Source: Pelagomonas calceolata
Lineage: Eukaryota
Reading direction: 5' to 3'
DNA length: 64,000 nucleotides
NCBI GenBank assembly: GCA_918797485.1
Contig: CAKKNE010000003.1
Location: 2,046,001 to 2,110,000 of the forward strand
The translations under genes and the position numbers were made by a program. Each line of letters opens with the position of its first letter. Within the stretch, counting starts at the first letter, position 1. Under the pieces are notes generated by a model, which was given only the letters and a program-made list of their open reading frames with translations, searched no databases and had not been told where the DNA came from. Below are positions 48,532-53,004 of this stretch, in pieces.

Positions 48532-51500
48532 ATGGGCGGCGGTGTATCATCTCTCCCTGCAGAGGTCTCGCTTGCTGAGGCCAAGGAGCTGGCGGGCGCC
48601 AAGTGGCAGCCCGCGTGGGAGGAGAAGTTCGCGGAAGCCAAGATCTCCAGGGACGAGGCAATACAATGCTGGAAAGAGTCCAAGGCCACGATCTCCGAGG
48701 CGCTCTACGAGAAGCTCCACGGCGTCGACCGCTCCGGTGTTGCCGAGGCGCTGGACTTTTCGGCCATAATTGCAGAGAAGCGCGGGCAGCACCTACCCGG
48801 CACGCGCGAGTGGGTCTTCGAGGCGGTCATGCGCTGGCGGACGGATCCGGAAGCTGCGAAGCTCTTCTGGCTCGTCGGTGGCGGCGGCACGGGCAAGAGC
48901 GTCGCCGCGGCCGAGTTGCTGGCGCGACTGCTCGACAAACAAAACGCAGCCGCGTGGCACTTCTGCAAGCACACCGAGCCGGCGCGGTCCGCGCCAGCGA
49001 CACTTTTGCGGTCGCTGGCGGGCATGCTTTGCGCGACGGTCGATGGATTCGAGGAGGCGCTGCGCGAGGGCGGCGGCGGCGACAACGCGACGGACAAGGT
49101 CGACGAGCTCTTCCAGGCGCTGATTGCCGAGCCGCTGCAAAGCGTTGAGGCGCCGCGCGGCGCGGACGACGCTCTGGTGTTGATAATCGACGCGCTCGAC
49201 GAGCTGCCGCGCGACGCGCTCAAGCCGGTGTTGTCGTTGCTCGCGAACGAGCTCAAGACGCTGCCGCCATGGATCAAACTTGTGGTGACGAGCCGCGACG
49301 AGGCTCAGATTAAGGCGTCATTGAAAGGTTACACGCCGTCAGAGCTCCGCGTCGACGAGGCGCGGAACCGGCAAGACGTTCGCGCGTACCTGACGGTACT
49401 CGCGAAGGAGCACGTCGAGCTGGAAGTGACGATGGACTCGCTGCGGCACGAGGTCGAGGCGAAGTTCCCGGGCCTGAAGAATCTCGACACGTTCGCGGAT
49501 CTAGAGGACCCGCTGCGGCGGTCGAAGGGCGCGTACGATGACGCCGTCAACGGGGTAGCGGACATCGGCGCCCTCGCTGCGTACAAGGAACGGCGTGATG
49601 TAGACTTGAAGCAAGACAAGAGCGATTTCGAGGCGCTCTATGCCGACGCAGCGCGAGCGCAGAAGATTTTAGTTGACAAGCTCACGCAGCTGCCCGGTGA
49701 TCTCTCAGACCCAGGCGTGAAGGGGCGCGGCTCGGCGCAGCGCAAGCTAAACGACAATTACAAAGGTGATGCCGCGCGCTTCCGAGACCTCAGTCGGGCG
49801 ACAGTCTTGTTCGAGAACGCCGCCGACCTTCTCAAGGTGCTGACCGAACTGGATGGTGGCGGCCTCGGGCTGGAGATCGCTCAATTAAAAAACAAGTTCG
49901 CGAATCCGACGCCGCTCGGCTACCGTGACATGAACTTGAACGTCCGCGTCCAGCTCGGCGACGGCGAGACGCATCTCGCCGAGGTTCAATTAAATTTGAG
50001 GAGCGTTGCGGACGCCAAGCACATCGCCCACGAGCAATACGAAGTGATCCGATTAGCGCTGCCGAAGATGTGTGAAGGTACGAGTGTCGAAGCGGACGCG
50101 CTTGAGGCGTATATCGCTCGTCGCTTGCGGTCTTCGGCGTTGGATGCAGCTGTGACCTCGCTCGAACGGAAGGCCGGCGGACTCATGCTCTACGCACGTC
50201 TCATCGCGGAGCAGCTCGCGTCCACGACGGGCAAGATCGACTTTGCGAGCGTCGGTGCACTTCCCGCGGGCCTCGACGAGATCTACGCGGAGAATTTTCG
50301 ACGCGTGTTTGTCGATGATACTGCATGGTGCGACGCGCTGCCGCTCGTTGAATTAATCTGTGCAGCGGCCGAGCCGTTGACAATTGACGCTGCGAGTGGG
50401 GCGCTCGGCTGGGATCGGGCTCGCTGCGAGGGTCTATGTGCTGAGGTGTCGCTGCTGTTCCCGCTGCGCGAGGGCGACGTGATCGGTGTTTTGCACAAGA
50501 CCGTAACGGACTGGCTAACCGGCGAGGCGCCGTTTGACGGCCGTGGCTGTGAGGACGCGTTCTTCATTGCGCAGGAGTCGGCGCACCGGCGGCTGGCGCG
50601 GGCTTGTGCTCGGGCGGTTCGTGCTGAGGTTCTGGATGCAAAGTCGTACTCGAGCGATGCTGCTGCAGATGCGGCGCTGGCATCATTCGTCAAGGGCGAG
50701 GGCGGCGCTGCGTCGGATGCTTATGCGTTGCGCTGGTGCTTGTTTCACATGAAGCGGTCTTCTGCTGAGGGCGAGGCCGTCGCTGTGGCGTGTGCCTTGT
50801 CGTACGTGCAGAAACGGGTCGATGGCGGCGACGTTGGTGCATTTGCTGGTGACCTCGATGTGCTGGAGGGTCGTGACGCGCTTCTACTCCGCGACGCGCT
50901 CGTGTTGTCACGGAACGCGTTGTCGCAGGGCACTCCACTTGTCGAGCAGTTCTGGCAGCGCATGACACCACGCGCCAATGCGGAGTCGTCTCCTGCCGCG
51001 CGACGCCTGGCCGACGACGCAAAGGGAGTCGCGAGCAAGCTGCCGCTCTCGGCCGTGAGGTCGATGGGTCTGACGGCGGCAGGTGGGGCGGAGCGGTGTC
51101 GTATTGAGGCCGGAGGTGAGTGCACGAGCTTGGCGACGTTCGTGGATCCGGCGACGGGCGAGCCGCGGGTTGCTTGTGGTTTTGAGCATGAAGTGTACAT
51201 CTATGATCCGGTCGCTGGTGGCGCGGCGCTTCTCGTGATTGATGTGGACTCGGATGTGCGGAGGTTAGTGGTCTTCAAAGACCCGGCGACGGGTGAGCCG
51301 CGGCTTGCTTGTGGTTGTTATGATGGGAAGGTGCGCATCTTCGACCCGGTCGCGGGGGGCGAGGCGTTGCTTGTGATCGATGTGGATTATAGCGTGAGTG
51401 CGCTTGTCGTATTTGAGGATCCGGCGACGGGTGCGCTGCGGCTCGCATGCAGTTCTGACGACTGGAAGGTTCGCGTCTTCGACCCGGTCGCGGGTGGTGA

Positions 51501-53004
51501 GGCGCTGCTCGTCCTCGAGATAGGCGACGAAGTGAACGCCTTGGCAGTCTTCAAAGACCCAGCGACGGGCGCGCCGCGGCTCGCGCGCGCGTCGGGAGAG
51601 AAGGTGCTTGTCTTCGATCCGACCGCGGGCGGTGACGCGCTGCTCGTGGTAGATACTGGACACGAAGTGTGGGCACTGGCGGTCTTCAAGGAACCAGCGA
51701 CGGGCGCGCCGAGGCTCGCGTGTGGTTCTACCGATGGAAAGATTCGTGTCTTTGACGCTATTTCTGGTGGCGACGTGCTGCTCGTGCTCGACGCTGGCGA
51801 AGTGGTGAGGGCGCTGGTCGCATTCGATGACCTGGCGACGGGCGAGCTGCGGCTCGCGAGCGGGTCGGAGGACGGAAAGGTGCGCGTCTTCGACCCGGTC
51901 GCGGGCGGCGAGGCGCTGGTCGTGCTCGAGGGGCATGCGGACTATGTGAGGGCTTTGACAGCCTTCACAGACCCGGCGACGGGCGAGCTGCGGCTCGTGA
52001 GCGGATCGGACGACAGCACTGTGCGAGTTTGGAACCCGGCGGCGAGCGGCGCGGCGATCGAGGTGGAGCCCGAGGGGCACTCTGGCATTGTGAGGGCCAT
52101 GGTGACCTTTGTGGATCCGGCGACGGGTGTGCTGCGGGTCGCGACCGGGTCGAACGATGAGACGATTCGCGTGTGGGACGCAGAGACTGGCGGTGGGCTG
52201 CTCGTGATCGACGTTGGTTCTGATGTGTTTGCGTTGGCGTTCTTTGTGGACCCGGCGACGGGCGCGCCGCGGCTCGCTTCTGGCTCTAACGGTGGGAAGG
52301 TGCGCGTCTTCGACCCGGTCGCGGGCGGCGAGGCGCTGGTCGAGCTCGACGCCGGCAACACCGCGTATGCGCTGGCGTTCTTCGCGGACCCGGCGACGGG
52401 TGCGTCGCGGCTCGCTTGTGGATCAGGTGGTTGGCGTGGTGGGAAAGTGCATGTCTTCGATCCAGTCGCGGGGGGCGAGGCGCTGCTCGTGATCGACGTG
52501 AATGCTAAGGCGCTGGCAATGTTCACGGACCCGGCGACGGGCGCGCTGCGGCTTGCTTGTGGTTGTGAGAATGGGGAGGTGCGTATTTACGACCCGCTCG
52601 CGGGCGGCGAGGCGCTGCTCGTACTCGAGGGGCACACGGAATCCGTGGAGGCGTTGACTGTTTTCGAAGACCCGGCGACGGGCGGACTTCGCCTCGCCAG
52701 CGGATCAGACGACAATTCCGTGCGCGTCTGGGACTTGGCGGCGGGTGGTGCGGTGCTGTTTGTGCTCGAGGGACACACGGAGTTTGTTTGCGCGCTGACG
52801 GCCTTCGCGGACCCGGCGACGGGCGAGATGCGGCTCGTGAGCGCGTCGTACGACAAGACTTTGCGGGTATGGGACGTGACCAAGGGCGGTGCGGCGCTGC
52901 GGGTAGTTCCTTTTGAAGATAATGTCTGGGACTTGGCGGCCAGGAACGACAAGAGCGGGCTCTTTGTGGCTTTGGGAAAGCGGTGGGGGGAATTGCGCAT
53001 ATAG
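48532..53004 (+). CDS. NLR-like STAND protein: NACHT NTPase with an inserted RelA/SpoT-like domain, plus ~14 WD40 repeats
   Basis: PGTREWV, Walker A GGGGTGKS, HFC, Walker B LIIDALDE, VVTSR, GLMLYA and LPAGLDEIY. Insert carries GVK...S..RK, DLSR, KNKF, GYRD, EVQL and AH..Y. Thirteen DPATG-type WD40 units. Confidence 0.9.
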   Translation: MGGGVSSLPAEVSLAEAKELAGAKWQPAWEEKFAEAKISRDEAIQCWKESKATISEALYEKLHGVDRSGVAEALDFSAIIAEKRGQHLPGTREWVFEAVMRWRTDPEAAKLFWLVGGGGTGKSVAAAELLARLLDKQNAAAWHFCKHTEPARSAPATLLRSLAGMLCATVDGFEEALREGGGGDNATDKVDELFQALIAEPLQSVEAPRGADDALVLIIDALDELPRDALKPVLSLLANELKTLPPWIKLVVTSRDEAQIKASLKGYTPSELRVDEARNRQDVRAYLTVLAKEHVELEVTMDSLRHEVEAKFPGLKNLDTFADLEDPLRRSKGAYDDAVNGVADIGALAAYKERRDVDLKQDKSDFEALYADAARAQKILVDKLTQLPGDLSDPGVKGRGSAQRKLNDNYKGDAARFRDLSRATVLFENAADLLKVLTELDGGGLGLEIAQLKNKFANPTPLGYRDMNLNVRVQLGDGETHLAEVQLNLRSVADAKHIAHEQYEVIRLALPKMCEGTSVEADALEAYIARRLRSSALDAAVTSLERKAGGLMLYARLIAEQLASTTGKIDFASVGALPAGLDEIYAENFRRVFVDDTAWCDALPLVELICAAAEPLTIDAASGALGWDRARCEGLCAEVSLLFPLREGDVIGVLHKTVTDWLTGEAPFDGRGCEDAFFIAQESAHRRLARACARAVRAEVLDAKSYSSDAAADAALASFVKGEGGAASDAYALRWCLFHMKRSSAEGEAVAVACALSYVQKRVDGGDVGAFAGDLDVLEGRDALLLRDALVLSRNALSQGTPLVEQFWQRMTPRANAESSPAARRLADDAKGVASKLPLSAVRSMGLTAAGGAERCRIEAGGECTSLATFVDPATGEPRVACGFEHEVYIYDPVAGGAALLVIDVDSDVRRLVVFKDPATGEPRLACGCYDGKVRIFDPVAGGEALLVIDVDYSVSALVVFEDPATGALRLACSSDDWKVRVFDPVAGGEALLVLEIGDEVNALAVFKDPATGAPRLARASGEKVLVFDPTAGGDALLVVDTGHEVWALAVFKEPATGAPRLACGSTDGKIRVFDAISGGDVLLVLDAGEVVRALVAFDDLATGELRLASGSEDGKVRVFDPVAGGEALVVLEGHADYVRALTAFTDPATGELRLVSGSDDSTVRVWNPAASGAAIEVEPEGHSGIVRAMVTFVDPATGVLRVATGSNDETIRVWDAETGGGLLVIDVGSDVFALAFFVDPATGAPRLASGSNGGKVRVFDPVAGGEALVELDAGNTAYALAFFADPATGASRLACGSGGWRGGKVHVFDPVAGGEALLVIDVNAKALAMFTDPATGALRLACGCENGEVRIYDPLAGGEALLVLEGHTESVEALTVFEDPATGGLRLASGSDDNSVRVWDLAAGGAVLFVLEGHTEFVCALTAFADPATGEMRLVSASYDKTLRVWDVTKGGAALRVVPFEDNVWDLAARNDKSGLFVALGKRWGELRI
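51100..52990 (+). repeat. Coding tandem repeat array (~135-144-bp WD40 units)
   Basis: GA(C/T)CCGGCGACGGG and TTCGACCCGGTCGCGGG recur in 13 units. Confidence 0.9.

Follow-up and report, generated by a model that had tools for sequence, protein, structure and literature searches.

A RelA/SpoT-type synthetase fold nested within the NACHT module of an NLR-like protein of Pelagomonas calceolata

Introduction

The effectors of NOD-like receptors (NLRs) are normally N-terminal, so an enzyme placed inside the ATPase module raises the question of how such a receptor would couple its switch to its output, as a different coupling is implied. We investigated this question in a 64,000-nucleotide (nt) stretch of the Pelagomonas calceolata genome (assembly GCA_918797485.1, contig CAKKNE010000003.1, positions 2,046,001 to 2,110,000 of the forward strand; hereafter the window), in which an open reading frame (ORF) at 48532-53004 on the forward strand encodes a NACHT-WD40 protein of 1,490 amino acids (aa). 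A sequence-only reading had placed a RelA/SpoT-type nucleotide synthetase within this NACHT domain. We found a ~230-aa module inside NACHT helical domain 1 (HD1), with a core predicted to adopt a RelA/SpoT homologue (RSH) synthetase fold. By analogy with characterized systems, we give about an even chance to a one-component immune switch. In this reading, a ligand bound to the WD40 repeats would free the synthetase, and its toxic alarmone product, with (p)ppApp as the leading candidate, would lead to arrest or death of the cell. Literature is cited by accession.

Results

The protein had the features of an NLR, namely a NACHT nucleotide-binding domain (NBD), an HD1 interrupted by the insert, a winged-helix domain (WHD), a helical domain 2 (HD2), and a C-terminal repeat sensor. 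Pfam NPHP3_N matched at aa 90-255 (E 3.7e-25) and Pfam NACHT at aa 112-265 (32 bits, cut-off 26.7). Based on Pfam, motifs, and alignment of the model to Apaf-1, Avs3, MalT, and ZAR1, the NBD and the first HD1 helix covered aa 76-290 (48757-49401, forward strand, as are all parts of the ORF), and included Walker A GGGGTGKS (48877-48900), Walker B (49174-49203, with IIDALDE at 49183-49203), and the sensor-1 motif VTSR (49285-49296). The remaining HD1, with KAGGLMLYA at 50170-50196, and the WHD, with LPAGLDEIY at 50260 and LHKTV at 50491, were assigned to 50131-50571 from motifs and the model. HD2 followed at 50572-51111, as indicated by predicted helices, by the Apaf-1 alignment reaching model residue 836, and by APAF1_C Pfam matches in relatives. 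The positions of Walker A, Walker B, VTSR, KAGGLMLYA, and the synthetase motifs from K397 to H500 agreed with the ones reported in the sequence-only reading.

We ran profiles of the two NACHT halves over 251 proteins, a redundant set, and both halves were found in 78. The gap between the halves was 245-280 aa and contained a synthetase core in 67 of these 78 proteins (246 aa in this protein), while it was 12-25 aa in nine, 72 aa in one, and 250 aa without a core match in one. In the nine insert-less NACHTs, the helix with the motif DVRxYL ran nearly straight into the helix with S.G.FLY. The in-frame insertion proposed earlier is thus nested in HD1 as claimed, at a length of ~230 rather than ~240 aa, given the gap of 246 aa compared to 12-25 aa. 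Of the nine nearest NACHTs lacking an insert, eight had an N-terminal TIR domain, and Pfam identified no N-terminal effector domain in the nested protein itself.

The AlphaFold2 (AF2) model of aa 1-850 (pLDDT 86.7, pTM 0.73) was consistent with this arrangement. Residues 10-275 of Cdc6 (1fnn) aligned over model residues 82-583 (233 aligned, rmsd 4.0), Apaf-1 residues 108-586 aligned over model residues 51-836 (Z 12.6, rmsd 9.9, 415 aligned), and ZAR1 aligned with Z 11.8 (rmsd 4.3, 227 aligned), while the alignment of small alarmone synthetases (SAS) and Tas1 fell at residues 364-511. Given that the AAA+ alignment spans both sides of the insert, the ATPase module closes round a separate ~230-aa domain that sits inside HD1. 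This module consisted of an N-terminal helical part, a predicted 'lid/stalk' that accompanies the core in relatives (aa 291-362, 49402-49617), the synthetase core (aa 363-515, 49618-50076), delimited by sequence, profile, fold, and motif evidence, and a modelled C-terminal helix leading back into NACHT (50077-50130), which was also present in non-NLR hosts.

The identity of the core was indicated by both sequence and predicted structure. As a single sequence, the insert matched Tas1 with E 1.3e-6, and a profile of 64 insert sequences searched against the PDB retrieved Tas1 (1e-22), SAS2 (1.2e-7), and SaEAS (3.8e-6), and no tRNA-targeting toxic SAS (toxSAS). Pfam RelA_SpoT (PF04607) gave no match on the insert of this protein, was matched by 20 of the 64 profile homologues at E<=0.01, and reached 6.3e-5, below cut-off, in a nested Prymnesium member; neither Pfam, NCBIfam, nor PADLOC named the insert. 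The core was predicted with pLDDT 95, and in a fold search against 48,161 chains its top 11 matches were all RSH-family synthetases (Z 8.5-14.6), including RelP and RelQ. SAS2 aligned with Z 14.6 (rmsd 3.4, 147 aligned; Foldseek concordant, E 1e-7) and Tas1 with Z 13.7 and 30% identity, compared to 8-20% identity for other top matches; on the full model, Tas1 aligned with rmsd 2.1 over 134 residues. As modelled, the core therefore is a RelA/SpoT-type synthetase fold, closest by sequence among solved structures to Tas1/Apk1, which bears out the fold anticipated by the earlier reading. Algal and plant plastid long RSHs (PMC6881373, PMC10107265) share the fold and ranked lower in the search (Z 8.5-12.2), but a long RSH was ruled out by architecture, as the protein lacked hydrolase, TGS, and ACT domains and had no evident plastid targeting.

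The catalytic residues of synthetase motifs Syn1-5 (K..K, DxxR, GY, ExQ, HxxY) were all present in the core: K397 (49720), S401/R404, K405, D419 (49786), R422 (49795), K453, G463 (49918)-Y464, D466, N468, E484 (49981), Q486, H500 (50029), and Y503. The canonical Syn1 Arg two residues ahead of the Lys was missing, as in Tas1. Active-site residues of Apk1 include R330, N370, and E382 (PMC12691689), which correspond to R422, N468, and E484, and by numbering offset D327 and Q384 correspond to D419 and Q486.

The same fold admits a different target, in that the released enzyme could pyrophosphorylate the CCA ends of tRNA, or other RNA 3' ends, and block translation as CapRel and FaRel2 do, with the helical part recruiting RNA. 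CapRel is a fused, phage-triggered toxSAS of the same fold (Z 12.3), and FaRel2 binds tRNA via an N-terminal helical extension (PMC11782079), such as the algal module also has. CapRel, however, shared 15% identity with the core compared to 30% for Tas1, and tRNA-targeting enzymes were absent from the PDB profile search, so we consider this target improbable.

The ORF was stop-free in the ORF scan of the window and consisted of a single exon, and the nearest named relatives of its product were P. calceolata proteins. Sense-strand RNA covered it in each of the four polyA runs, all stranded and from at most one sample (6-12% of a run used; 255-714 reads aligned), with 5' ends clustering near 48459 and no splice joints listed over the insert. 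Read depth over the insert bins was 0.9-15, to which reads of close paralogues may have added, and one run had a single empty bin immediately upstream of the insert. A 795-nt contig from run X1, spanning the right insert junction, was identical to 49444-50238 (0 differences), and 49444-50043 was matched exactly in a probable DNA run. Given the joint-free sense RNA and the exact contig matches, the insert is coding and not an assembly error; an intron or assembly artefact was ruled out, and the concern that the insert might be spliced out of the mRNA was answered. The ORF was thus transcribed under culture conditions, while metatranscriptome contigs X15 and X17 yielded only short pieces with several differences, such that expression of this copy at sea is not proven.

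Conservation argued for a functional enzyme. Among 58 non-redundant module-flanked domains, which, like the 44 strictly nested domains, came from searches using the insert as query and hence form a biased set, R422, G463, and D466 were conserved in all 58, D419 and E484 in 57, H500 in 56, and Q486 and Y503 in 55. All ten catalytic positions checked were intact in 37 of the 44 nested domains, and the other seven were four fragments or frameshifted ends and three domains with one substitution. A NACHT-only query recovered 26 new proteins, 17 with a complete core (17/17 keeping DxxR, GYxD, ExQ, and HxxY), five truncated within the core, and four without a core match. Paralogues ending within the core included P0205 and P0014 (P. 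calceolata), P0201, P0203, and P0206, and the first two, whose contigs have equal length, resemble two parts of one broken gene. The Arg of the Syn1 helix occurred at +4 or +7, never at both (112 R/non-R and 16 S/R among 143 domains, which are related sequences and not independent events), and the S/R state is also found in the active enzyme SaEAS.

Core dN/dS was 0.13, 0.22, and 0.26 against three paralogous loci, a sign of purifying selection, compared to 0.46 for the WD40 region (one comparison), so that together with the conserved catalytic residues a pseudo-enzyme is unlikely. Core dS (49618-50076 against L002, L004, and L005) was 1.1-1.2, while the NBD had about half that value (0.6) and the WD40 region about a third (0.38), a pattern suggesting that two old insert types have been shuffled between homogenised flanks. 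The insert might instead be an integrated decoy or nucleotide sensor: on binding an alarmone or a protein of a pathogen, it would switch on the NACHT, with signalling through a partner, as integrated domains of plant NLRs serve as baits. Paralogues did differ more in the core (61-82% identity) than in the NBD (85-92%), but catalytic residues were conserved across lineages, the domain resembles bacterial toxins and not a host target, and no other effector domain was found in the protein, which leaves a decoy role with very little credit.

The predicted sensor region, 51118-53001, contained 13 conserved WD40-type repeats, identified by Pfam WD40 and repeat alignment, each 45-48 aa long and anchored on DPATG. 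Of the approximately 14 blades counted earlier, the repeat array and 13 conserved blades were recovered, and the 14th is a divergent last blade recognised by eye only. Each repeat had two hypervariable positions (3.8 bits compared to at most 2.5 elsewhere; 117 repeats). Positive selection was not shown across the 13 repeats, where per-column pN/pS was near saturation (overall pS 0.50, pN 0.29). The repeat sensors differed among relatives, being WD40, ankyrin, or both. At the N-terminus, MGGGVSS (48532-48552) is a predicted N-myristoylation signal by its consensus, and is followed by a short helical region in the AF2 model (aa 8-63, 48553-48720) that belongs to no Pfam family. Scored against the same consensus, a myristoylation-like start occurred in just 18 of 56 nested N-termini; membrane anchoring, as proposed in the sequence-only reading, was therefore not established and would be optional.

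Two neighbouring genes were checked. On the reverse strand, 38690-48142 is a 3,150-aa ORF without a significant Pfam match, divergently transcribed ~390 bp from the NLR start, and 53108-53692 is a small convergent gene with CRM-like and KH domains.

A search of representative proteins gave 1,594 matches at E<=0.001, and relatives were drawn from 150 of these. Among the matches listed, the nested architecture was found in P. calceolata, Pelagophyceae CCMP2097, Triparma laevis, Proboscia alata, and Prymnesium parvum, representing pelagophytes, Parmales, a diatom, and a haptophyte. An atlas look-up returned three clusters, mostly eukaryotic, at 0.95-0.96. A quick tree built from 143 domains had a branch with SH-aLRT 92 that set 44 of 44 nested domains and 40 others apart from MuF, VgrG-type, and extracellular contractile injection system (eCIS)-linked proteins. 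In the NBD tree, insert-bearing NBDs lay on one side with a support of only 41, which is compatible with a single insertion origin without showing it. A P. parvum cluster (P0027, P0177-P0179, P0209, P0210) was nested and had extra N-terminal ubiquitin-like and exo/endo/phosphatase domains.

The module also had non-NLR protist hosts, including Rho-like, discoidin-like, and dinoflagellate proteins and ubiquitin-conjugating (UBC) and EF-hand fusions. In these carriers (P0110 from Bicosta minor, P0090, P0117 from Cylindrotheca closterium, P0089, P0123, P0092, P0086, P0130), it was apparently located within a Rho-like GTPase or discoidin-like domain, or joined to UBC, EF-hand, or membrane-like regions. 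The B. minor protein matched RhoA upstream of the module (E 4e-6), and by eye its tail presumably corresponds to a Rho C-terminus. In the discoidin-like proteins, similarity flanked the module on both sides, which suggests that the module is nested again in the C. closterium protein. Six further proteins (P0051, P0053, P0055, P0044, P0069, P0126) had the module between degenerate HD1-like flanks without an NBD, with HEAT, LRR, or ankyrin repeats after it. The helical part plus synthetase may thus be a mobile insertion domain and part of a wider cytosolic alarmone system.

Such a spread could also reflect a non-immune or outward-facing role, in which a mobile toxin-derived module entered many hosts, the NLR being one of its carriers, and targets bacteria that are engulfed or attached. 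The module does occur in unrelated host proteins, and bacteria export its relatives as toxins (PMC12691689), but the MGGGVSS start shows no evident signal peptide and the NACHT position was stable across stramenopiles and haptophytes, and we regard such a role as a poor prospect.

Scans of viral contigs, which had low sensitivity, recovered no giant-virus homologues and only one phage contig (L001), where 1617-4002 holds genes for a portal, for a protein with a GYRDMN synthetase at its end, and then for an HD_4 hydrolase; this head-gene layout is Apk2-like with a different N-terminus. A bacterial origin of the gene was rejected, as the sole GTDB match (L002 1-870, 77% identity) was an algal-type contig-end fragment joined to part of mutS, which we interpret as a misassembly; L002 is a contig of an alphaproteobacterial metagenome-assembled genome and probably chimeric.

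Discussion

STAND proteins rest in an ADP-bound closed state, and ligand-triggered nucleotide exchange is followed by rotation of NBD and HD1 against the WHD and oligomerisation (PMC12258605). As an immune switch, the P. calceolata protein would similarly be closed and ADP-bound at rest, and a non-self ligand bound by the WD40 repeats would trigger nucleotide exchange. NBD and HD1 would then rotate against the WHD, and the NACHT would open or oligomerise. Given that the enzyme rides on HD1, this movement would carry or unmask it directly. With Tas1/Apk-like chemistry, the released enzyme would move pyrophosphate from ATP to the 3'-OH of ATP or ADP and drain the ATP pool, and such purine-nucleotide pyrophosphorylation would arrest or kill the cell. 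Eukaryotic cells can die from an excess of cytosolic alarmone (PMC7666150). A role against giant viruses, given as an example in the sequence-only reading, would be speculative. Up-regulation of a NACHT-domain gene is reported in virus-recovered G. huxleyi (PMC12489294).

Several observations weigh against this immune switch. No immunity gene was recognised among the two neighbours checked, though the ORF was transcribed in culture, so that silencing must be intramolecular. P. calceolata NACHT-domain genes as a class were enriched under low light, not an infection cue (10.64898/2026.09.29.755320). Apk1 K353 (SaEAS K154) was not matched in this core, which has Q451 at that position, variable in the family; K453, kept in 52 of 58 module-type domains, may be a substitute, judging from the sequence. 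Several paralogues were truncated inside the core (5/26 from the NACHT-only query), and the presence of the module in non-NLR and NBD-less proteins indicates that it does not require a STAND switch. Finally, the motifs do not name the product, with Syn3 GYRDMN compared to GYSGVN in Tas1.

The last point concerns the earlier suggestion that GYRD and EVQLNL hint at a non-canonical product: the enzyme type is indeed closest to Tas1/Apk, but these motifs cannot specify the product, given that Apk1-like enzymes include (p)ppApp-only, (p)ppGpp-only, and dual members (PMC12691689) and that swaps of Syn2-4 signatures leave specificity unswitched (PMC12226406). On sequence closeness, we place (p)ppApp as the most likely among the candidate products. 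Under the same NACHT gating, slow synthesis of (p)ppGpp or pGpp by the enzyme could instead provide a reversible second messenger, for instance slowing plastid or cytosolic metabolism, without a death signal. The Apk1-like enzymes VpEAS and AaEAS make only (p)ppGpp and SaEAS favours G acceptors (PMC12691689), RelP and RelQ were among the top fold matches, the protist fusions to EF-hand, UBC, Rho-like, and discoidin-like domains look like signalling, and ppGpp is already used in algal plastids (PMC10107265). However, the sequence is nearest to Tas1, Syn2 RxT and Syn3 xN resemble Apk signatures (PMC12226406), and hypervariable sensor repeats together with broken copies fit conflict genes. A second-messenger role is therefore credible but rather unlikely.

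Among known systems, Tas1/Apk1 and Apk2/EAS (PDB 6OX6, 8VX3) share with the algal core the fold, DLxR, GYxxxN, and ExQxN, and provided the best sequence match among solved structures. Apk signatures comprise Syn2 RxT, Syn3 GxN, and a Syn4 signature (PMC12226406); here RAT and N468 match, QLN resembles the QVN of Tas1, and D466 replaces the Syn3 G. Unlike Tas1/Apk1, the algal protein is eukaryotic, not exported, and nested in an NLR, with an extra ~70-aa helical part, no adjacent immunity gene seen, and no PAAR or MuF delivery domain found by Pfam. CapRel-SJ46 (PDB 7ZTB) is likewise a one-chain, sensor-gated, antiviral RSH-fold enzyme, but has a pseudo-zinc-finger antitoxin as sensor and tRNA as target (PMC11782079), in contrast to the WD40 repeats and the STAND ATPase that would gate the algal enzyme by analogy.

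Fungal RelA_SpoT-NACHT-WD40/ANK NLRs also combine an RSH synthetase, a NACHT, and a repeat sensor in one chain (PMC4986451, PMC12258605), and the function of that domain is likewise only predicted (PMC10197012). Their synthetase domain is N-terminal and detectable by Pfam (PMC4986451), while the algal one lies within HD1 and is missed by Pfam, so the contrast drawn in the sequence-only reading was correct. No named fungal proteins occurred among the insert matches whose sources were looked up. The nearest NACHT relatives were TIR-NACHT-TPR/WD40 proteins (P0227-P0239, one named Polynucleobacter) and HET-E/NWD-type NLRs, which have the same HD1/WHD motifs and repeats with a constant frame and variable positions, but an N-terminal effector and an uninterrupted HD1 (12-25 aa gap). 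Divergent SASs of uncertain placement have been listed in fungi, Dictyostelium, and two diatoms (PMC3153485). We found no description of a synthetase nested in a NACHT in the full-text literature searched, which most subscription papers lie outside, and the supplements of a bacteria-restricted survey (PMC12691689) contained no Pelagomonas, Prymnesium, Chrysochromulina, Aureococcus, Emiliania, or NACHT entry. The protein is a variant of the enzyme-effector NLR that would work like a sensor-gated toxSAS, and it lies outside the fungal RelA_SpoT NLRs and outside Apk1/Apk2 as defined.

Tentatively, and with less confidence than for the single protein, marine protists may have acquired a bacterial toxin-type synthetase as a self-contained insertion module, gated by NACHT in an NLR clade for (p)ppApp suicide against viruses or parasites, and used elsewhere for alarmone signalling. 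If this were true, the module would replace the N-terminal effector in an NLR clade of pelagophytes, Parmales, diatoms, and haptophytes, while other protists would have wired it into Rho-like, EF-hand, and ubiquitin-pathway proteins as cytosolic alarmone signalling. A 2022 review was aware of no plant or algal (p)ppApp report (PMC10107265), and how marine microalgae counter viruses is described as poorly known (PMC12489294). This small domain, which Pfam misses, is amenable to assay in E. coli and would open both questions in lineages that dominate open-ocean phytoplankton.

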